Source: a virus (lineage: Duplodnaviria; Heunggongvirae; Uroviricota; Caudoviricetes). From it: 33,324 nucleotides of DNA. The notes beneath the pieces were generated by a model, which saw only the letters and a list, made by a program, of their open reading frames with translations, was not told the DNA's origin and made no database searches. A program made the translations under genes and the position numbers. Location: the IMG/VR virus record IMGVR_UViG_2711768068_000019. The stretch is one strand, 5' to 3'. Below are positions 1,363 to 29,202 of the stretch, piece by piece (within the stretch, counting starts at the first letter, position 1; every line of letters begins with the position of its first letter).

Positions 1363-1506
1363 TTAATTTCGATTATTTTTCCCGGATGGAAAATTCTTAG
1401 AAACCGATCACATACAGCTGCATTTATTAAGGTTATCATCCGTTTCGCTGAAAAACATAACCCATAAAATGCTAGCTGTACCAGGAACCACCTCCTTAGC
1501 CTGTGT

Positions 1507-1534
1507 AATCTCCCTTACACGGGCTTATTTTTTA
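1507..1534. repeat. Prophage attachment site core, ogr-proximal junction (attR in P2 convention)
   Basis: aatctcccttacacgggcttatttttta is repeated exactly at 32822..32849; its reverse complement contains the 27-bp P2 att core AAAAAATAAGCCCGTGTAAGGGAGATT as I recall it. Confidence 0.85.
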
Positions 1535-3591: not shown

Positions 3592-6039
3592 TTAACCGTC
3601 ATGCATCATGCTGGCACGGGCGCGCGCACGTTTATCCCGCTCGTATTTTTCGAGCGCATCCTGTAACTGGCGGTCAAGCTGTGTCCCCGGCGCAGTACCA
3701 CCCGTCAGGCTGATGTGATATTCGTTTTTACTCTGGTCCACATAAGAGCGGCCAGCCGGTGCCGTAACCGGCTGATAAGCCTGATAACCTGCATAAGAGC
3801 TGGTCGCCGGAATATAACCACCGGTGCCATACGTGGCGGCATGAGTTCTGGCGGCGGTCTGGTCAAGTGTGTCTGACTCTTTGTTGATAACACCGAGTTT
3901 TTCCAGTACCCAGTCAATACCGCTGCGCAGTTTGTTGAACGCATTAAGCGGCAGCATCAGCGCGTCAGCCAGTGCCTGCCCGAACATGACCCCCGTGTCA
4001 CGGCAACGGTTCAGGGTGTCCTGTGTGGCTTTAACCGGGGCAATCAGGTTTTTAAACCACTGCCACGCGGCCTGTAACTTTTCACCCAGCCAGTCAAAAA
4101 CCGGTTTAAGTGGCGTGAACAGTTCCCCCACCGGCGCAAATGCCGCTTTCAGCCCTTCCACCACACCGCCAAAGAATGCGCTGACAGGCTCCCAGTATTT
4201 ACGGATAAGCAACGCCCCGGCGACAATGGCGGCCACCACGGCCACAACCGGCCAGCTAATCGCCCCGATGGCCGTCATAACAGCACTGCCAACCGTCGTG
4301 AAGATTGCCCCCATTGCGCCTGCTGCCGCGATGATGGCATTAATGCCGGTGATAACCGGCCAGGCTACAAGACCAATTGCACCGATGATGCCAATAAGCG
4401 CCAGTGCGCCACCGACAATAAGGCCGATGGTTGACGCCAGTGATTTGTTTTTCTGGATCCAGCCGTCGAGTTTTAACACATACTTTGTGGCCGTCTGCGT
4501 GAGATTACGCAGTGCGCCTTCCTGTTGGTCAAACAGGTCAGTCCCCACCGCCTCATAAGCAGACTGAAACTCCTTAAAGTCACCGCCCAGGTTGTCCTGC
4601 ATGATATTTACCAGCTCGGCGGTCTTCCCGTCTGAGGCTTTAAACGCAGCGGTCAGTTTGTCCAGCTTTCCGGTTGAGGCGGCAGTCATCAGCACGGCGG
4701 CGGCTGAGCTGGCCTCCTCCCCGAAAATAGTTTTCATGTATTCAGCCTGCTGGGCAGTACCGAGCCGGTTTTTCTCAAAACTGGCCTGCATTTCTTTCAG
4801 AATGGTAAATATTGGCCGGGTGTTTCCCTTGCTGTCTGAGGTTTTCACTCCAAGCTCTTTGAGTGCATCCCATGCTTTTCCCGTCGGTGCCTGCAGGCGG
4901 CTTAACACGGCACGGCTTCCCGTCCCCGCCATTGAGCCTGTGATTTTTGCATCATGCAGCGCCCCGACCATTGCGGCGGTTTCTTCAATGCTGACACCGG
5001 CATTTTTTGCCACAGGTGCGGCATAGGTCAGCGCATCGCTCATACCGTCAAAATCGGCGGCGGTTTTGTTCATCGTCATGGAGAGAACATCCCCGATATG
5101 AGCGACCTTATCGTTTGAAAGCTGAAAGGCGGATTTCATCCCCATCAGCAGGGCGGCGTTTTCTTCCATCGTGCGACGGTTCGCCAGCGCCATATTCAGC
5201 GTGACCGGCGTTGCCGCCTGAATGGCATCAACATCCCCACCGGCTTTCGCAATAATAATCTGCGCACCGGCTGCATCATCTGCCGAGGCGGCGGTATTGT
5301 CGCCAAGCTGACGCGCCTGTTTGCGGAGCGCGGCCATTTCGGCGGAGTCTTTTGCCACACCTAGCACGGCCTGCAATTCTGAGTTTTTCTGCGCAAACTC
5401 ATAACCGGGCATCAGCAGCTTAACACCGGCCATCGTTCCCGCCGCCGCAATCCCCACACCGGCAGCGCCCACTGAGGCCATATTTCCGGCCAGCTCCTTT
5501 CCGGCCTGATAACGCTGTTTTACTGCGTTAAGTTTTGCCTGTTGCGCACTGACACGCGCCAGCGCATCACGCTGACGGTTAAGCTGTGTGGTGGTTTCAC
5601 TGATACGGTTTTTCAGCCCTCGTTCATCATGCGCCAGATTACGGGTATTAATTCCCACAGCGGCCAGTTCCCGCTGCTGGCGCTTAACGGAATCCGTCAG
5701 ACGGTTATATTTCGCCTGTAAGTCCTCCGCCGCACGCTTTGCGGATTCCAGCACTTTCGCCTGAGCACGGGTCGGACGTTCGGTGTTTTTAAACTGTGTG
5801 GCAAGGGCTTCGGCTTCCTGCCGAGCCTTTTCAAGTGCATGACCAGTCACGGCGAGCTGCGCACTGGTCTTGCGAAATCCCTCAATACGGGACGCCTGAC
5901 CGTTCAGCTCGCGCAGTGATTTTTGTGTTTCCCGGATATCCCCCGACAGCGACTTGCTCGCTGTACGGATGGATTTAAACGGGCGGGATGCCTGGTCAAC
6001 AGCCCTGAGCAATACCTGTAATTTTACATTGTTACTCAT
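3592..6039 (-). CDS. T: Tail tape measure protein T
   Basis: 815-aa ORF with a coiled-coil N-terminal half and a Gly/Ala-rich hydrophobic central segment, typical of tape measure proteins; position and length match P2 gpT. Confidence 0.9.
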   Translation of the reverse strand: MSNNVKLQVLLRAVDQASRPFKSIRTASKSLSGDIRETQKSLRELNGQASRIEGFRKTSAQLAVTGHALEKARQEAEALATQFKNTERPTRAQAKVLESAKRAAEDLQAKYNRLTDSVKRQQRELAAVGINTRNLAHDERGLKNRISETTTQLNRQRDALARVSAQQAKLNAVKQRYQAGKELAGNMASVGAAGVGIAAAGTMAGVKLLMPGYEFAQKNSELQAVLGVAKDSAEMAALRKQARQLGDNTAASADDAAGAQIIIAKAGGDVDAIQAATPVTLNMALANRRTMEENAALLMGMKSAFQLSNDKVAHIGDVLSMTMNKTAADFDGMSDALTYAAPVAKNAGVSIEETAAMVGALHDAKITGSMAGTGSRAVLSRLQAPTGKAWDALKELGVKTSDSKGNTRPIFTILKEMQASFEKNRLGTAQQAEYMKTIFGEEASSAAAVLMTAASTGKLDKLTAAFKASDGKTAELVNIMQDNLGGDFKEFQSAYEAVGTDLFDQQEGALRNLTQTATKYVLKLDGWIQKNKSLASTIGLIVGGALALIGIIGAIGLVAWPVITGINAIIAAAGAMGAIFTTVGSAVMTAIGAISWPVVAVVAAIVAGALLIRKYWEPVSAFFGGVVEGLKAAFAPVGELFTPLKPVFDWLGEKLQAAWQWFKNLIAPVKATQDTLNRCRDTGVMFGQALADALMLPLNAFNKLRSGIDWVLEKLGVINKESDTLDQTAARTHAATYGTGGYIPATSSYAGYQAYQPVTAPAGRSYVDQSKNEYHISLTGGTAPGTQLDRQLQDALEKYERDKRARARASMMHDG

Positions 6040-21032: not shown

Positions 21033-22805
21033 ATGACCATCACCACAGACACCACTCTTTTACACGACCCGCGTCGTCAGGCGGCGCTGCTGTACTGGCA
21101 GGGGTTTTCCGTGCCGCAGATTGCCGCCATGTTGCAGATGAAACGCCCGACGGTGCAGAGCTGGAAACAGCGCGACGGCTGGGACAGCGTTGCCCCCATC
21201 AGCCGTGTCGAAATGAGTCTGGAAGCGCGGCTGACCCAGCTCATCATCAAACCGCAGAAAACCGGCGGTGACTTCAAGGAAATTGACCTTCTGGGACGCC
21301 AGATTGAACGACTGGCACGGGTAAACCGTTACAGTCAGACCGGCAACGAGGCAGACCTTAATCCGAACGTCGCTAACCGCAACAAAGGCGGGCGTCGCAA
21401 ACCGAAAAAGAATTTTTTCAGTGACGAGGCCATCGAAAAGCTGGAGCAGATTTTCTTTGAGCAGTCTTTCGACTATCAGTTGCACTGGTATCGCGCCGGG
21501 CTTGAGCACCGCATCCGCGATATCCTGAAATCCCGCCAGATTGGCGCGACGTTTTATTTTTCCCGCGAGGCGCTGCTGCGCGCCCTGAAAACCGGTCATA
21601 ACCAGATTTTTCTGTCGGCCAGTAAAACGCAGGCGTATGTGTTCCGCGAATACATCATCGCCTTTGCCCGGCTGGTTGACGTTGACCTGACCGGTGACCC
21701 GATTGTCCTGGGCAATAACGGCGCAAAACTGATTTTTCTCGGCACCAACTCCAACACCGCGCAGAGCCATAACGGCGACCTGTACGTCGACGAGATTTTC
21801 TGGATCCCGAATTTTCAGGTACTGCGTAAGGTGGCATCAGGTATGGCCTCACAGAGTCACCTGCGCTCGACCTATTTCTCCACCCCGTCCACGCTGGCGC
21901 ACGACGCCTACCCGTTCTGGTCGGGTGAACTGTTCAACCGGGGACGCGCCAGCGCCGCCGAACGCGTGGAAATCGATGTCAGTCATAACGCCCTTGCCGG
22001 TGGGCTTCTCTGTGCGGACGGCCAGTGGCGGCAGATTGTCACCATTGAGGACGCCCTGAAAGGTGGCTGCACGCTGTTCGACATTGAGCAGCTTAAACGC
22101 GAAAACAGCGCCGACGATTTTAAAAACCTGTTCATGTGTGAATTTGTTGACGACAAGGCGTCGGTGTTCCCGTTCGAGGAGCTGCAACGCTGCATGGTCG
22201 ACACGCTGGAAGAATGGGAAGACTATGCACCCTTTGCCGCAAATCCGTTCGGTTCCCGCCCGGTATGGATTGGTTACGACCCGTCACACCGTGGCGACAG
22301 CGCCGGATGCGTGGTGCTGGCACCGCCGGTGGTGGCCGGTGGCAAATTCAGAATACTTGAGCGTCACCAGTGGAAAGGCATGGACTTTGCCACTCAGGCT
22401 GAATCCATCCGCAAACTCACCGAAAAATATAACGTCGAATACATCGGTATTGATGCCACCGGCCTCGGTGTCGGCGTGTTCCAGCTCGTGCGCTCGTTCT
22501 ATCCCGCCGCGCGCGATATCCGCTACACGCCGGAAATGAAAACTGCAATGGTGCTCAAGGCAAAAGACGTTATCCGCCGTGGCTGTCTGGAATATGACGT
22601 CAGCGCCACCGATATCACCAGCTCGTTCATGGCTATCCGCAAGACCATGACCAGCAGCGGACGCAGCGCCACCTATGAGGCCAGCCGCAGCGAGGAAGCC
22701 AGCCACGCCGACCTCGCCTGGGCGACCATGCACGCCCTGTTAAATGAGCCACTCACCGCCGGTATCAGCACTCCGCTGACATCCACCATTCTGGAGTTTT
22801 ACTGA
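21033..22805 (+). CDS. P: Terminase ATPase (large) subunit P
   Basis: 590-aa product from the ATG at 21033 (MTITTDTTLLHDPRRQAALLYWQGF...), preceded by an AGG Shine-Dalgarno-like motif; the track ORF begins 10 codons upstream at a TTG. Confidence 0.9.
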   Translation: MTITTDTTLLHDPRRQAALLYWQGFSVPQIAAMLQMKRPTVQSWKQRDGWDSVAPISRVEMSLEARLTQLIIKPQKTGGDFKEIDLLGRQIERLARVNRYSQTGNEADLNPNVANRNKGGRRKPKKNFFSDEAIEKLEQIFFEQSFDYQLHWYRAGLEHRIRDILKSRQIGATFYFSREALLRALKTGHNQIFLSASKTQAYVFREYIIAFARLVDVDLTGDPIVLGNNGAKLIFLGTNSNTAQSHNGDLYVDEIFWIPNFQVLRKVASGMASQSHLRSTYFSTPSTLAHDAYPFWSGELFNRGRASAAERVEIDVSHNALAGGLLCADGQWRQIVTIEDALKGGCTLFDIEQLKRENSADDFKNLFMCEFVDDKASVFPFEELQRCMVDTLEEWEDYAPFAANPFGSRPVWIGYDPSHRGDSAGCVVLAPPVVAGGKFRILERHQWKGMDFATQAESIRKLTEKYNVEYIGIDATGLGVGVFQLVRSFYPAARDIRYTPEMKTAMVLKAKDVIRRGCLEYDVSATDITSSFMAIRKTMTSSGRSATYEASRSEEASHADLAWATMHALLNEPLTAGISTPLTSTILEFY

Positions 22806-23839
22806 TGAGCAAGAAAAAAGGGAAAACACCGCAACCTGCGGCAAAAAAAATGACTGCCAGCGCCCCGAAAATGGAGGCATTCACCTTTGGTGAGCCGGTG
22901 CCGGTGCTCGACCGCCGTGACATTCTGGATTACGTCGAATGCATCAGTAACGGCAGATGGTATGAGCCGCCGGTCAGCTTTACCGGTCTGGCAAAAAGCC
23001 TGCGTGCTGCCGTGCATCACAGCTCACCGATTTACGTCAAACGTAATATTCTGGCCTCGACATTTATCCCGCATCCATGGCTTTCCCAGCAGGATTTCAG
23101 CCGCTTTGTGCTGGATTTTCTGGTATTTGGTAATGCATTTCTGGAAAAGCGTTACAGCACCACCGGTAAGGTCATCAGACTGGAAACCTCACCGGCAAAA
23201 TATACCCGCCGTGGTGTGGAAGAGGATATTTACTGGTGGGTGCCGTCCTTCAACGAGCCGACAGCCTTCGCGCCCGGCTCCGTGTTTCACCTGCTGGAGC
23301 CGGATATTAATCAGGAGCTGTACGGCCTGCCGGAATATCTCAGCGCCCTTAACTCTGCCTGGCTGAATGAGTCGGCCACGCTGTTCCGCCGCAAGTATTA
23401 CGAAAATGGCGCACATGCCGGATACATCATGTACGTCACCGATGCCGTGCAGGATCGCAACGATATCGAAATGCTCCGCGAAAACATGGTTAAGTCGAAA
23501 GGCCGCAACAACTTTAAAAATCTGTTTCTCTATGCCCCACAGGGGAAAGCCGACGGCATTAAAATTATCCCCCTCAGTGAAGTGGCGACGAAGGACGATT
23601 TTTTTAATATCAAAAAAGCCAGCGCCGCTGACCTGCTGGACGCGCACCGCATCCCCTTTCAGTTGATGGGCGGCAAGCCGGAGAACGTCGGGTCGCTGGG
23701 TGATATAGAGAAAGTGGCAAAGGTCTTTGTCCGCAATGAGCTTATCCCGTTACAGGACAGGATCCGCGAGATAAACGGCTGGCTCGGTCAGGAGGTCATC
23801 CGCTTTAAAAACTACTCACTGGACACTGACAACGGCTGA
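22805..23839 (+). CDS. Q: Portal protein Q
   Basis: 344-aa ORF whose ATG overlaps the P stop (ATGA); recognised as P2 gpQ. Confidence 0.9.
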   Translation: MSKKKGKTPQPAAKKMTASAPKMEAFTFGEPVPVLDRRDILDYVECISNGRWYEPPVSFTGLAKSLRAAVHHSSPIYVKRNILASTFIPHPWLSQQDFSRFVLDFLVFGNAFLEKRYSTTGKVIRLETSPAKYTRRGVEEDIYWWVPSFNEPTAFAPGSVFHLLEPDINQELYGLPEYLSALNSAWLNESATLFRRKYYENGAHAGYIMYVTDAVQDRNDIEMLRENMVKSKGRNNFKNLFLYAPQGKADGIKIIPLSEVATKDDFFNIKKASAADLLDAHRIPFQLMGGKPENVGSLGDIEKVAKVFVRNELIPLQDRIREINGWLGQEVIRFKNYSLDTDNG

Positions 23840-24008: not shown

Positions 24009-24027
24009 GTGCTTTCCCCGCCTCGCC
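24009..24027. other. cos cohesive-end sequence (19-mer)
   Basis: gtgctttccccgcctcgcc is the reverse complement of GGCGAGGCGGGGAAAGCAC, which I recall as the P2 cohesive end; it lies where cos is expected, between Q and the accessory genes. Confidence 0.6.
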
Positions 24028-24168: not shown

Positions 24169-24708
24169 TCAATCATCATGATGAGAGAACCTAGCATTTA
24201 CTATTCTTGAGTGAAGATTGTTTGCAAATGATAAGTTGCTTAAAATAACACTAAACACACACTTTATTTGTAACCAGCACATAAAATAAACAAAGGTGAT
24301 TCCAATCATTCTAATAAGATCAGAATACACCACTGAACTCGATAGCACAGAGCCTATTGATTTAAACAGATAAACAAACAAAATCGAAAGCATTACTACT
24401 GCTGAAGTAATTACAACGTAAATTAGCTTTTCAATTCGAGGTGCATCTTTCGTATTCTTTATGTAATCAACATCATCATTGACAATGCTTGCAATTGCAT
24501 TCGGATATAAAAAACCAATCCATAATCCAACTATGGTAAAAATTGCAGCAGATATGTTTTGCAAAACACCCAGTATATCTTTTATATCACTATAGTTAAC
24601 ATAAGCTTTCAGCCAATAGGAGGCCACAGCAATTAGAAATAGAATTAACAAATTCCATTTCCATTGTATTATCAATGCCTTTAAATCCTTACTTGTTTGA
24701 GGTGACAT
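24169..24708 (-). CDS. Hypothetical small integral membrane protein (4 predicted transmembrane helices), second gene of an AT-rich cargo operon
   Basis: 179-aa ORF. Its ATG directly follows the upstream TAA (TAAATG) and is preceded by GGAGG within the upstream gene's 3' end. Four hydrophobic stretches of about 17-23 residues. About 30% GC by eye. Confidence 0.7.
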   Translation of the reverse strand: MSPQTSKDLKALIIQWKWNLLILFLIAVASYWLKAYVNYSDIKDILGVLQNISAAIFTIVGLWIGFLYPNAIASIVNDDVDYIKNTKDAPRIEKLIYVVITSAVVMLSILFVYLFKSIGSVLSSSVVYSDLIRMIGITFVYFMCWLQIKCVFSVILSNLSFANNLHSRIVNARFSHHDD

Positions 24709-25836
24709 TTATGCCTCCGCCGTTTTTAAAGATTTTTCTTCCACCTCTTCATTATAAAGGATTGTTTGGAGTAAATCATCACGAACAGCCTTTATTTCAT
24801 GAAGGAGTTTTTCTGGAGAGAAATGCTCATCTCCGGTAGAATCGCTGACAATTAATGCAGTTCTCGCCATATATTTTTTTAACCATAATGGGCGAGATGA
24901 ATCTTTAAGAACAAAGCCAACATCAACCCAGTCAACATCATCTACATTTCTATCCAATAGTTGTTTTATCTCCTCTTCCGAAGGAGCACCATCTACTCGA
25001 ACCTCAATTTTTTTAGGTTTTGTAAACTTGGTTTGTTCTGTTCCCAAGAAATCCGATAGTACATTACTCACCAGACGTAATAACGGTTGCCGGGTATCCT
25101 CAACTTTTGCGACCGTAGTATCACGAATAATTGTCTGAACAATTTTATCTCGTACATCAAGAATATTCGTCCCTGGTTTATTAACCTTCGTCACTTCAGC
25201 CTTAAATTTAAAAACGCAATTACACTTGCGTCCATTTTCATCTACATGCTTGAAAATTGTTTTAGAAATAAGAATGTCATCTTCCGAACATGAAGAACGA
25301 GCTCTAGTAAATGAGGTAGTATCCTTTTCCCTACCAAAATCACCGTGATTTACTACAAAATTAAAAATATAATTGCTTAACCTCGGTGTATCTGCACCTG
25401 AATGAGGAAATATAATGGATGCAATCTTGTTATATTCAGGAATTATCCAATAATAACATGGCTCAACCCAAATATAGTCTTTTCCATTCGTTTCTGTCTT
25501 TACTGTATCATTTTCTGTAGCACCAACAGGTGCGTTTTTTTTAACAGCGTGCAAACGTCCCTTCGCGGAACCTAATGCGCGATACATTACCATCACCCGA
25601 TCTTTTGTATCGGGATCGACAGCCACTCCTCGTGAGTAAGTTCTGGCTCTTAGCGGATGAGTTCCCGTATCCCACGGAATTGACTCCTCAACGCTTTTGT
25701 CATCAAGCCAAGCCTGCAACGCGTCAAAGATCTCATCAAGTGTTCCGAATTTATGCTCTAATTCTTCTGCGTTTTTCTTCAGTCTGTAAAAACCACAAGC
25801 CTTGATATCAAAGAACGTAACGATTCCAGTTTCCAT
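24709..25836 (-). CDS. Hypothetical protein (375 aa), first gene of an AT-rich cargo operon at the P2 tin/old position
   Basis: ORF with the ATG at 25834-25836 (METGIVTFFDIKACGFYRLKK...); the track ORF begins 21 codons upstream at a TTG. No transmembrane segment and no Walker A motif. Low GC. No family recognised. Confidence 0.7.
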   Translation of the reverse strand: METGIVTFFDIKACGFYRLKKNAEELEHKFGTLDEIFDALQAWLDDKSVEESIPWDTGTHPLRARTYSRGVAVDPDTKDRVMVMYRALGSAKGRLHAVKKNAPVGATENDTVKTETNGKDYIWVEPCYYWIIPEYNKIASIIFPHSGADTPRLSNYIFNFVVNHGDFGREKDTTSFTRARSSCSEDDILISKTIFKHVDENGRKCNCVFKFKAEVTKVNKPGTNILDVRDKIVQTIIRDTTVAKVEDTRQPLLRLVSNVLSDFLGTEQTKFTKPKKIEVRVDGAPSEEEIKQLLDRNVDDVDWVDVGFVLKDSSRPLWLKKYMARTALIVSDSTGDEHFSPEKLLHEIKAVRDDLLQTILYNEEVEEKSLKTAEA

Positions 25837-25993
25837 CACTTTCCCTACGAAGCGGTAAAAAATCCCCAGAACAATAAGGGATCTATGCAAAAGGTTCAAT
25901 GCTCAAGATTATCACCTAGTATGCTAACGCCTCCGCAGATGAGTTGTTCACCCCGCCAACCCTGAAAACAAGTTTCACGACTGGCGGCGCTCT

Positions 25994-26200
25994 CTATCGT
26001 CTGCGTGGTGGTGGCGCAACTCTGGACTGACCGATATAGTTAAACCGCCCGTAATTATCCCGGACTATTTCGGCACACCCGACTAGCTCATCGGGCGTCA
26101 GATTTTCGTTGACCATAATCTGCTGTAGACGGTGAACAATGGCCATCAGCTTGATATTTTTAGTTTTATGGTGCGGTATCTCGCCTGGTATTCTGTGCAT
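25994..26200 (-). CDS. Hypothetical small protein (about 68 aa)
   Basis: ATG at 26198-26200 overlaps the stop of the upstream gene by one base (TAATG), suggesting translational coupling; the track ORF begins at a GTG 4 codons upstream. No homolog recognised. Confidence 0.35.
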   Translation of the reverse strand: MHRIPGEIPHHKTKNIKLMAIVHRLQQIMVNENLTPDELVGCAEIVRDNYGRFNYIGQSRVAPPPRRR

Positions 26201-26655
26201 TATCCAAGCCACCCATTTTGCTTTGCACGCTCCACCTGTTCATCTGAATAGTTCCATGCTCCATCCGTGGCAACCATTGCCCCGCCAGACATCCCCGTCT
26301 CTGGTTCATACATAACAGCAAGGCCGAGCTGATGCATAATTTCATGATTAATTCTGAATACCAGACCACGCTCACTAAGTTCTTTCCAGTTCACAATCTC
26401 ATATGCGCCTGTATTAAGCAGCTCAATACTTAGCAAGACATAATCTACCAGCCAGTCTGACAGGTCAGTAACATCTGTTATCCGGGCTTCAACCTTTCGC
26501 CCCGTGTACACACCCTGCACCCATTCATGCAAAATCAACGTGTCCCCGCGCTCATAATTACGGTCATTTTTCCGAAACTCTGCGCGTTTCTTTCCTTCCA
26601 GCACAAGGTCGAAATATTTTGCGTGCAGCTTTACCTCGTGAATTTTTGCCATCAT
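26200..26655 (-). CDS. ASCH/PUA-like (DUF3850-like) domain protein with a C-terminal extension containing an HExxH motif
   Basis: 151-aa product from the ATG overlapping the A stop (ATGA), preceded by GGAG. The N-terminus (MAKIHEVKLHAKYFDLVLEGKKRAEFRKNDRNYERGDTLILHEW...) resembles ASCH/DUF3850 proteins as I recall them. The C-terminal region contains HEIMH. Confidence 0.7.
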   Translation of the reverse strand: MMAKIHEVKLHAKYFDLVLEGKKRAEFRKNDRNYERGDTLILHEWVQGVYTGRKVEARITDVTDLSDWLVDYVLLSIELLNTGAYEIVNWKELSERGLVFRINHEIMHQLGLAVMYEPETGMSGGAMVATDGAWNYSDEQVERAKQNGWLG

Positions 26656-28937
26656 GTCCACTCCATTACTGTTGAGAATCCCGGCCACTCATCAGCGACC
26701 GGATACGTGAACTTTTTCCCGTCATAATTTACGGTTGCCCCACGCGCCAGCGCCTCAAGCTCCCATCGCTGCGGCCTGATACCGTTCTGAGCAAGGTCAA
26801 CGCGGATACGGGTAATTTGCATTCGTTCCGACCGGGTCATTCTGGCCGATGGCGCTATTTCATGCGGTTTTAACGGGCTTCCGTTTCTTTGCTGACGACT
26901 TGGCGTTCTCCGACCGTGTTTTAATGCACCTCTGAGCGCCCTCACGACCTCCGGGTCACTCCATTCGATAACACCGTCATCAACCAGATTAAGCACTGCT
27001 GCGGCGTGCTCAGAAGGTGTGGGAGCCGGTAACGAAGTATCACCGCCGGTAAGCTTTCCACAGTTATTGACAGGACTCCGAGGCGCGGCGATGCCGCTTT
27101 TTAAAGTCAAAGGCTCAACGACCGGAACTTTCGGCACAATGCGCCAGTCCGTGGTTCTGGTGATATGAATATGACGCGCGCCGAGATGCGGTGCGTAAAT
27201 GCCGACCACTCTCTCGACTTCTTCCTCGTACTCGTTAACGTCATCCGACGGGCTACGGGCGACTCTGACAGTCTGACAATCGCGCGGAACATTTGCCCCA
27301 CCCTGCGCGCTGATATACAACGCAAAATCACCACTGTCTGCGGCGGCGCGTGCAGCCTCGACGCGCTCGTCAAACTCATCAGCAATGCTGACGCCGCGAG
27401 GCAATTTGCGTAATTCACGGTAAGCCCCCATTGTCGGCAGACCAACCGTTTTAAATTGCGGAATGCGCCACGTTGACGCCCATGCGGTAACAGCCGCTGC
27501 AGTGTCTTTCAGCGGCCTGCCGGTGTCGTTATCGAGCTGACCATCCAGTGCATAGCCGTCGATGTTTTTTGAAATGTATTTCGCGATATATCCCGCAGCA
27601 CCGCCCCGGTTAAGGTGTTTTGCCTGAAAACGGTTTCGCGCGGCTCCTCTTTCGTCACCATCCTCTTTGAGCGCATAGCGACGCATGATTTCGATAATCT
27701 GGTTACGCTGGCGTGGATTACAAAAAAGCATCATATGCCAGTGCGGCGTTCCGTCGTGGTGTGGCTCGACGACTCGCAAACCGTAGACCTGTAAATCATT
27801 ATCCTTGAATGCCGTGCGCATCAGGCTCCAGATACGGCAGAGATAACGCTGCGCATCCTTTGGATTAAATGCCTCATCGTTCCAGCCGTGATTAAGCTGC
27901 ACGGTTTTACTTTCGCCTTTTCCGACCTGACGTGTCGGGTGATACTTTGACGGCGCGGTCAGCGTGATAAACATCCCCACATCACCCTCTGCAGCGGCGT
28001 AACGCTCAATACCGGCAATGGTGTTCATCAGCTCCATCCGGCGAATTTCAGGATTAGAAATACTGCCCATCACCTTACTGATAAGGTCGATGCGCTCGCC
28101 GGTTTCCCTGTTTTCGAGGTCACACGATTTAAGAAATTCCAGATTTGCCTGGCGGCGCGCACGCACATCACGAATGGCGTGTTTACTGGCATAAGGAGAA
28201 CGGTCTTTATTGACCTCCCCGACAGCTATCAGTAACGCCTCATGCCAGCGCATACGCTGTCCTTTAAGCTGATGAGTCCACCACTCATCGTTAAACAGGC
28301 GGGCAATGGCAGAATATGCCTGCCTCGTGGTCATCTGTCCTTTACGGTATTTTTTCCAGTAGAGAGGGGAAATATTGAAAGCACGTGCAGCGCCAGCAAC
28401 ATGACCATAGAGGTGAGCCTGCGCCTTATCCGTAAACAGCGATTCTTTTTCGCCATGCGCATCCACCCAGGCATCGCAGAGTTCCTCATACATCATGAAA
28501 AGCTGCGATGAGATACGGGCGGCAAACTTTTTCAGCTCCTTGTCATTCATTCCAGGCAGGCGCGCATAGTGGTCACGCTCTGCCAGAAACAGCAACGACG
28601 CGTCGGTGTTCATTTCATGGCGCTGATTCACACGCTCAATACGCGGCCATAAACGACGCTGAAAAGTGGATGTGAGGAAATAAAACCCGTGTACCGGACT
28701 TTTATTGCGCCGGATGTAGTCATAGCGTGAAGTAAACAGCGAGCGCAAAAAGTAAGGCAGGCGGTTAATCGTGGATAAAACACCTTGCACCTGACGCATC
28801 TCGTCACGTGTAAGAGGTCTTTCTCGCCCAACGGCCTCGCGTGGCGCGTTCCATGCATAAGCACCGGTAAACGTCTCACCGGTGCCTGCGGCAAATGCTG
28901 ACGGAGGGACAAAACGCCCGGAGGCTTTAACGGCCAT
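26652..28937 (-). CDS. A: Replication initiation protein A (rolling-circle HUH endonuclease)
   Basis: 761-aa product from the ATG at 28935-28937 (MAVKASGRFVPPSAF...); the track ORF begins at a TTG 14 codons upstream. Contains a HUH-type motif (PHWHMMLF) and a candidate catalytic Tyr region (YIAKYISKN). Confidence 0.9.
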   Translation of the reverse strand: MAVKASGRFVPPSAFAAGTGETFTGAYAWNAPREAVGRERPLTRDEMRQVQGVLSTINRLPYFLRSLFTSRYDYIRRNKSPVHGFYFLTSTFQRRLWPRIERVNQRHEMNTDASLLFLAERDHYARLPGMNDKELKKFAARISSQLFMMYEELCDAWVDAHGEKESLFTDKAQAHLYGHVAGAARAFNISPLYWKKYRKGQMTTRQAYSAIARLFNDEWWTHQLKGQRMRWHEALLIAVGEVNKDRSPYASKHAIRDVRARRQANLEFLKSCDLENRETGERIDLISKVMGSISNPEIRRMELMNTIAGIERYAAAEGDVGMFITLTAPSKYHPTRQVGKGESKTVQLNHGWNDEAFNPKDAQRYLCRIWSLMRTAFKDNDLQVYGLRVVEPHHDGTPHWHMMLFCNPRQRNQIIEIMRRYALKEDGDERGAARNRFQAKHLNRGGAAGYIAKYISKNIDGYALDGQLDNDTGRPLKDTAAAVTAWASTWRIPQFKTVGLPTMGAYRELRKLPRGVSIADEFDERVEAARAAADSGDFALYISAQGGANVPRDCQTVRVARSPSDDVNEYEEEVERVVGIYAPHLGARHIHITRTTDWRIVPKVPVVEPLTLKSGIAAPRSPVNNCGKLTGGDTSLPAPTPSEHAAAVLNLVDDGVIEWSDPEVVRALRGALKHGRRTPSRQQRNGSPLKPHEIAPSARMTRSERMQITRIRVDLAQNGIRPQRWELEALARGATVNYDGKKFTYPVADEWPGFSTVMEWT

Positions 28938-29202
28938 ATGAGCCAAAAGCCTCTGAACAACGCTTGCTGAGTTGCTCAACCTGCGCGTTTAAATCAGCAA
29001 AAGACTTTGCGCTTCCGGTCAGAATATCGTGATGCATCAGGCCGGAAACGAGCTGGCTTAATTTCGGGTAATAACCAACCACCGCCAGCCATTCCTGACC
29101 GGCGTTTTTACCGCTTTCCGCTCTCTTTTTCTCGTGGAGAATAAACTGAAAGCTGTCACTGGTAACGACATAACGTTCGCCAATTTCAATACGAATACTC
29201 AT
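28927..29202 (-). CDS. Hypothetical protein in the early operon (91 aa)
   Basis: ATG-start ORF overlapping the A start by 11 nt; lies between the zinc-finger ORF and A. No family recognised. Confidence 0.55.
   Translation of the reverse strand: MSIRIEIGERYVVTSDSFQFILHEKKRAESGKNAGQEWLAVVGYYPKLSQLVSGLMHHDILTGSAKSFADLNAQVEQLSKRCSEAFGSYGR

Follow-up and report, generated by a model that had tools for sequence, protein, structure and literature searches.

Organization of the locus

Immediately downstream of the rolling-circle replication initiator gene A, in a 33,324-nt stretch of viral DNA (IMG/VR record IMGVR_UViG_2711768068_000019; referred to here as the window), lie orf91 and a small gene, and the whole block, including the end of A, is encoded on the minus strand (Table 1). 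The A start given in the table was chosen to match the 761-aa length of the P2 protein; the longest ORF extends to 28979. The first-pass annotation, made from the sequence alone, had described an ATG overlapping the A stop codon and a TAATG overlap coupling a 68-aa ORF to orf91, and the coordinates confirm both. The A stop codon TGA occupies 26652–26654 and the orf91 ATG 26655–26653, forming an ATGA overlap, with GGAG placed 5 nt upstream of the ATG, within the 3′ end of A. At the other end of the gene, the TAA stop (26200–26202) overlaps the ATG of the small ORF (26200–26198), for which a GTG at 26212 is a possible alternative start giving 72 aa. A consensus scan for an intrinsic terminator immediately 3′ of the small ORF returned no convincing candidate.

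Table 1 Features of the window, in order of position
Feature	Coordinates	Strand	Basis or description
CyaR/RyeE sRNA	1445–1530	+	Rfam, 100.7 bits
Portal gene Q	22805–23839		
Cohesive end (cos)	24009–24027	−	Exact 19-nt P2 cohesive end
Two-gene cassette	24169–25899	−	Candidate anti-phage system
orf92-like small gene, 68 aa	25994–26200	−	PHROG 11386, E 9e-41
orf91, full-length 151-aa ASCH–DUF7415	26200–26655	−	PHROG 1812 end-to-end, E 1e-81; AF2 model
DUF7415 domain, aa 87–146	26218–26397	−	Helix–helix–β-hairpin–helix; Pfam E 1.9e-14; pLDDT 94–98
HEIMH pentapeptide, aa 104–108	26332–26346	−	On predicted helix 98–110
ASCH/DUF3850 domain, aa 5–77	26425–26643	−	PUA-like β-barrel; GxKxxExR (G21, K23, E26, R28)
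Gene A, rolling-circle replication initiator	26652–28937	−	Pfam Phage_GPA, E 5e-124; near-identical to Wphi/P2 A
P2 orf83 (DUF5405)	28927–29202	−	Gene just upstream of A

Identity with P2 orf91 and Wphi gp91/gp92

Sequence comparison identifies the gene after A as the full-length form of the already known P2 orf91, so that the layout, which had been described as not recognisable from P2, is in fact present there. P2 Orf91 (NP_046796) occupies the same locus, has the same 4-nt overlap with A and carries the same ASCH domain, with 95% identity to window residues 1–79 in the alignment and a match that runs through residue 75. Beyond that residue, P2 Orf91 departs from the window protein and ends in an unrelated 34-aa tail, where the tin/old cassette begins; it lacks DUF7415, and P2 lacks orf92. 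The DNA of Wphi is 95.5% identical to the window over the whole block, but frameshifts split the gene into two annotated ORFs, whereas the window form is intact. At the nucleotide level, P2 orf91 and Wphi gp91/gp92 match the window with 95–97% identity.

Against phage genomes, megablast with the block matched 46 records, including P2, Wphi, L-413C and many Yersinia and Escherichia peduoviruses, and in 23 of them at least 80% of the block is covered. Similarity breaks off at positions that vary by phage (about 25921, 26030, 26162 and 26432 in the window), which indicates that cargo exchange erodes the block to different depths. As a DUF3850 protein the gene is already annotated in hundreds of genomes, and the finding as first stated is thus ordinary; the comparison does call for two database corrections, with Wphi gp91 and gp92 being fragments of one gene and P2 Orf91 a truncated allele. 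The Wphi fragments, gp91 (93 aa) and gp92 (64 aa), correspond to frameshifted pieces of a single ASCH–DUF7415 gene at 3662–4210 (−) of that genome (L001), and the small ORF of the window has an unannotated counterpart in the Wphi records.

Position at the edge of the A–Q hotspot

The region between A and Q is a known defence hotspot of P2-like phages (PMC9122126). In the window the cohesive end (GGCGAGGCGGGGAAAGCAC), a perfect match to cosR as annotated in P2, lies between Q and the cargo cassette, and its position fixes the gene order as Q, cos, cargo, orf92, orf91, A. Between cos and orf92 is a low-GC (32–40%) cassette of two genes, the first encoding a product of about 375–396 aa that matches PADLOC model PDC-M18A (E 4e-38) and the second a 179-aa predicted membrane protein that matches PDC-M18B (E 3e-16). 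It shares the orientation of the early operon and is a candidate anti-phage system.

The orf91–orf92 pair sits at the A-proximal edge of the same hotspot, between A and the portal gene (PMC9122126), and its GC content of 45–51% is intermediate, as might be expected if the pair belonged to the variable defence genes of the hotspot, here the PDC-M18 cassette, perhaps as its regulator. We consider this very improbable. Unrelated cargos accompany the pair elsewhere, namely the methylase, gp96 and gp98 in Wphi, different genes in two further loci (L006 and L009) and tin/old in P2, and its occurrence with many different cargos argues that it is not part of the cassette. Both genes are read in the early-operon direction with the start coupled to A, and searches of the two products against PADLOC and NCBIfam gave no match and no named anti-defence family. 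Neither ASCH nor DUF3850 is named in a 2026 survey of P2 hotspots.

The N-terminal ASCH domain

The N-terminal region of about 80 residues, which had been likened to ASCH/DUF3850 domains, is a genuine member of this group, with both Pfam models scoring above their curated cut-offs: DUF3850 at residues 5–77 (E 2.7e-17, 63.1 bits against 22.9) and ASCH (E 3.4e-10, 41 bits against 21.2). Its predicted structure is the β-barrel fold of PUA-like domains. Present in the domain is the octapeptide GxKxxExR (G21-K22-K23-R24-A25-E26-F27-R28), aligned with AGRKTITIR of YqfB; GxKxxExR was reportedly described by Iyer et al. in 2006 as the conserved octapeptide of ASCH domains. A 'conservative octapeptide' of ASCH is also mentioned in a study in which the catalytic residues of YqfB are given as Lys21, Thr24, Arg26 and Glu74 (PMC9599836).

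This catalytic set is not reproduced in orf91. In a MAFFT alignment whose 19% identity gives it moderate certainty, K23 and R28 align with the catalytic Lys and Arg of Escherichia coli YqfB, E26 takes the place of Thr24 and the segment carrying Glu74 has no counterpart; in homologue P0180, E26 is itself replaced by Leu. These differences lead us to read the domain as a binding module and not as a YqfB-type hydrolase. Were the protein an ASCH-class enzyme, either an N4-acetylcytidine amidohydrolase of the YqfB/EOLA1 type or a ribonuclease of the ZmASCH type, its substrates in the infected cell would be nucleosides or RNA, and DUF7415 would be a tail with a regulatory function. We regard such an activity as unlikely: the amidohydrolase nucleophile Thr24 is Glu in orf91, the region bearing the acid Glu74 is absent from the 77-aa minimal domain and, given the Leu in P0180, no catalytic residue set is conserved.

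ASCH domains have been predicted to be readers of modified bases and show recurrent operon links to N6A methyltransferases (PMC4738411, PMC7641849). We infer that the orf91 domain likewise has a binding and not a catalytic role, its ligand being nucleic acid or a modified base. A structurally characterized DUF3850/ASCH protein, EF of Enterococcus faecalis (PDB 3IUW, 'activating signal cointegrator'), differs from orf91 in being stand-alone, with neither DUF7415 nor a phage replication context. Mentions of DUF3850 in the literature are passing ones only, for example in ParB-CTPase fusions.

DUF7415, a mobile module of phage proteins

The C-terminal part of orf91 is formed by DUF7415 (PF24187), matched by Pfam at residues 87–129 with 54 bits against a cut-off of 27. 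A word-indexed homologue search returned just close relatives and fragments, and an exhaustive HMMER search with residues 79–151 as query was needed to reveal the family, yielding 194 representatives among 1.84 billion proteins. Alignment of the family gives the consensus IDWNELSxxGLxxRINREILHPLGLAxxRDPETGxSxGALVxxDGxWEY. Orf91 shares its near-invariant core, G-L...I-N..E..H-x-x-G-L-A, and has the near-invariant residues G97, L98, I102, N103, H108, G111, L112, G121 and S123. Among the 142 members that share under 70% identity with the query, to which the conservation figures given here refer, N103 and G111 are invariant, and H108 (96%), P109 (94%) and E105 (83%) are highly conserved. Orf91 departs from the family at position 109 (Gln in place of the Pro found in 94%), position 104 (His, mostly Arg, Lys or Thr elsewhere) and position 116 (Tyr, with Arg in 72%).

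An AlphaFold (AF2) model of orf91 built on an alignment of 148 sequences has a mean pLDDT of 87.7, with the highly confident DUF7415 part as given in Table 1; the alignment was required, a single-sequence prediction having reached a pLDDT of just 34. Comparison of the DUF7415 profile with the sequences in the PDB gave nothing meaningful. Searches of three fold libraries with the whole of orf91 returned no fold match for DUF7415, which is weak evidence, as matches to ASCH dominate all three. No paper mentioning DUF7415 was found in the literature. A winged helix–turn–helix was considered for the domain on account of its helix–Gly–helix and hairpin, but the classical helix–turn–helix positions fit poorly.

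DUF7415 is a module of about 55 aa that phages encode both by itself and in fusions with dozens of unrelated partners. Of 145 representative proteins, 51 are stand-alone and 94 are fusions, the extensions of which fall into 79 sequence clusters. Recognisable among the partners are a dATP/dGTP pyrophosphohydrolase, thymidylate kinase, an Rv2179c-like exonuclease, DUF5405 (P2 orf83) and the restriction-alleviation protein Lar. This pattern, in which phage proteins combine one small domain with 79 or more different sequence partners, is where the value of the comparison lies. DUF7415 would be a docking or binding module common to many early phage proteins.

Two further observations concern the regions flanking DUF7415. 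A MazG-like N-terminus, noticed by eye in the L083 protein, found no support in Pfam at E ≤ 0.01. A motif of the form E(I/V)xDFFAG(L/I)GxPGxP...EEMQ recurs on either side of DUF7415 within the protein, or is encoded by a small gene of its own immediately preceding A (P0021, P0037, P0061 and P0067; L091 6378–6695; L061 3371–4261); it has no Pfam match.

The HExxH pentapeptide

The HEIMH sequence reported in the C-terminal extension is indeed present, falling within DUF7415. It had been presented as the minimal signature of zinc metallopeptidases, with the caveat that it might be coincidental, and it is the caveat that proved right. The motif is not conserved across the DUF7415 family: among the 142 distant members, position 104 is Arg in 39%, Lys in 17%, Thr in 13%, Asn in 8% and His in 8% (12 of 142). 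HExxH occurs in 27 of 164 retrieved proteins, most of the 27 being near-identical to the query. HExxH alone carries little weight: the number of occurrences expected by chance in a protein the size of orf91 is 0.005–0.016, and a second example, HELEH, lies in a non-coding frame of the same window. Family comparison thus indicates that the pentapeptide arose by coincidence in a single sub-lineage, where His stands in for the more common Arg, Lys or Thr.

Where His is found at position 104, it tends to be paired with Tyr116 (8 of 12 members, against 24 of 130 with other residues; Fisher p 8e-4, uncorrected for phylogeny), an association that suggests a packing contact. The question of whether the two His residues could form a metal site was answered in part by structure prediction, which places H104 and H108 one turn apart on a confident helix but in no zincin fold. 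As candidates for a third ligand, E117 (Glu in 10%) and E119 (Glu in 46%) are variable, and D131 is 89% conserved. On geometry alone, a lineage-specific metal site formed by H104, H108 and D131 may be conceivable.

The least probable of the explanations we considered is that the C-terminal extension is a minimal zincin (H104, E105, H108), targeted by the ASCH domain and cleaving, for example, a host or defence protein. Such an enzyme would account for the HEIMH sequence with its closely spaced His residues, for the retention of HEI[LM]H in the sub-lineage found in P2-like prophages and for the conservation of E105 and H108 across the family, but just 8% of the distant members have the first His. 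Likeness to zincin metallopeptidases extends to the pentapeptide on a helix and to nothing else: sequence and structure searches with orf91 detected neither a zincin fold nor similarity to any peptidase family.

Distribution among P2-like prophages

The 662-bp block is found at 80% coverage or more in 345 of 5,426 complete Escherichia coli genomes, and among the matches listed at this coverage all adjoin a gene annotated as 'replication endonuclease'. The adjacent 745 bp of A reaches at least 80% coverage in 1,415 genomes and is detected at any coverage in 1,682. Orf91 is present in about a quarter of E. coli P2-like prophages and missing from the others, which marks it, on comparative grounds, as a non-essential accessory gene. 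In prophages such as L010 and L011, and in phage P2_AC1, A passes directly to other genes, with no orf91 between. Whether the gene is universal among P2-like prophages or variable had been raised at the outset; it lies beside A in the matches listed, but it is not universal. P2 orf91 has been called 'an essential protein' in a 2025 preprint that used it as a qPCR target and gave no evidence for the statement (PMC12407873), which is contradicted by P2_AC1 and the P2-like prophages lacking the gene.

More distant relatives retain the arrangement. P2-like prophages of Enterobacter and from metagenomes, with proteins 52–60% identical, have the order A, ASCH–DUF7415, coupled small ORF, variable cargo and portal, and the small-ORF homologues in the same coupled position are 61–66% identical; the orf91–orf92 block is therefore old. 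In both genes, third codon positions hold an excess of the differences, the pattern expected of coding sequence under purifying selection. Of the two domains DUF7415 is the better conserved, at 70% identity against 44% for ASCH.

Recurrent linkage of ASCH, DUF7415 and the small ORF

Elsewhere in the P2/186 group the same modules recur in other arrangements. A protein encoded directly after gpA in a 186-like prophage (P0099) has the order swapped, with DUF7415 followed by DUF3850. A second 186-like prophage encodes the two domains in separate genes that overlap by 4 nt, one for a DUF7415 protein of 257 aa and the next for an ASCH protein of 98 aa; a Dam methyltransferase and then A come after them. 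In P0026, encoded after a Toprim/DUF5906 primase-helicase, DUF7415 is combined with a ClpX-type zinc finger and with a segment resembling orf92 (34% identity over 50 residues, E 6e-8). The occurrence of both fusion orders, of adjacent split genes and of a fusion including the orf92-like segment indicates that ASCH, DUF7415 and the small ORF are evolutionarily linked. Their recurrence, in most cases next to the replication gene and frequently accompanied by Dam-type methyltransferases or a Lar domain, suggests an early module acting on DNA or on DNA modification.

The surroundings of DUF7415 were tallied in 80 IMG/VR loci; this set is biased towards relatives of the query, so that the counts speak for P2-like phages rather than for the family at large. 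A gpA or primase gene lies no more than 2.4 kb from DUF7415 in 54 loci, and in 7 the next gene downstream encodes a D12 N6-adenine methyltransferase. In 15 loci, from the late region of P2-like phages of high GC content, a stand-alone copy of 70 aa separates gpL from gpX; 11 loci match none of the seed sequences. The late copies (for example at L068 5986–6198, with 14 similar loci) lie between the head-completion gene L and the tail gene X; with them, a purely replication-linked role does not fit, and the link to replication is not universal. T4-like Klebsiella phages and T5-like phages carry DUF7415 among their early genes, where it lies near NudE, upstream of the primase or, by tblastn, next to nrdD or overlapping it.

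Several further arrangements were observed around A. A fusion of DUF7415 with the Lar restriction-alleviation domain lies upstream of A at L091 5992–6417. A Toprim primase-helicase takes the place of gpA in P2-like phages L039 and L050, yet downstream of it a DUF7415 gene and a Dam methyltransferase are again found. In the window A is immediately preceded by P2 orf83 (DUF5405), and a DUF5405–DUF7415 fusion occupies the position directly upstream of A in other P2-like phages (L052 5432–5905), so that DUF7415 can flank A on either side.

Such proximity could also mean that orf91 is a dedicated partner of gpA, made in proportion to it and helping the cis-acting initiator at the origin or handling the displaced strand; the gene would then be a replication factor and not a conflict gene. 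The ATGA overlap with a Shine–Dalgarno sequence inside the end of A, the retention in several lineages of a position immediately after or before gpA, and the DUF5405–DUF7415 fusion are all in keeping with such a partner. However, many P2-like prophages and P2_AC1 manage without the gene, P2 itself lacks the DUF7415 half and orf92, and the same module follows an unrelated primase-helicase and is present in T4-like and T5-like phages. We regard this closest rival as rather unlikely.

Proposed role of orf91

Taken as a whole, the evidence is probably best explained by orf91 being an intact, accessory gene of the P2 early operon, co-translated with the initiator A, whose two-domain product is not a protease. 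Its minimal, PUA-like ASCH domain at the N terminus and DUF7415 at the C terminus would be independent, the former binding nucleic acid or a modified base and the latter serving as a small mobile phage module for shared docking or binding. ASCH, DUF7415 and the coupled 68-aa orf92-like protein would work as one functional unit in the early phase of the lytic cycle. The target would most likely be the DNA of phage or host, or the modification state of that DNA, and the effect an aid to replication or to counter-restriction. Several observations weigh against this explanation: DUF7415 is without structural or functional precedent; the dNTP pyrophosphohydrolase, thymidylate kinase and exonuclease partners fit nucleotide metabolism as well as DNA modification; the late-region copies and the T4-like and T5-like phages present other contexts; and in the window prophage no methyltransferase adjoins the gene.

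A more far-reaching proposal, which we advance tentatively, is that ASCH, DUF7415 and the orf92-like peptide might constitute an unrecognised three-part early module of P2/186-family phages, repeatedly fused, split and reordered beside the replication initiator together with Dam-type methyltransferases, Lar-like domains and nucleotide enzymes. The module would read a modified base or the state of the DNA through ASCH and dock through DUF7415, forming a new counter-restriction or replication-protection device, which would make DUF7415 an adaptor domain widespread in phages and sharing one target. In P2/186-like phages DUF7415 is tied to ASCH, a small conserved peptide and a replication gene; its target, if found, could account for a number of unassigned early genes of P2-like, T4-like and T5-like phages and would clarify the edge of the well-studied P2 defence hotspot.

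At the far end of the window, the presence of the CyaR/RyeE sRNA (Table 1) indicates that host chromosome adjoining the prophage is included. The cyaR locus is a known integration neighbourhood of P2-like prophages.
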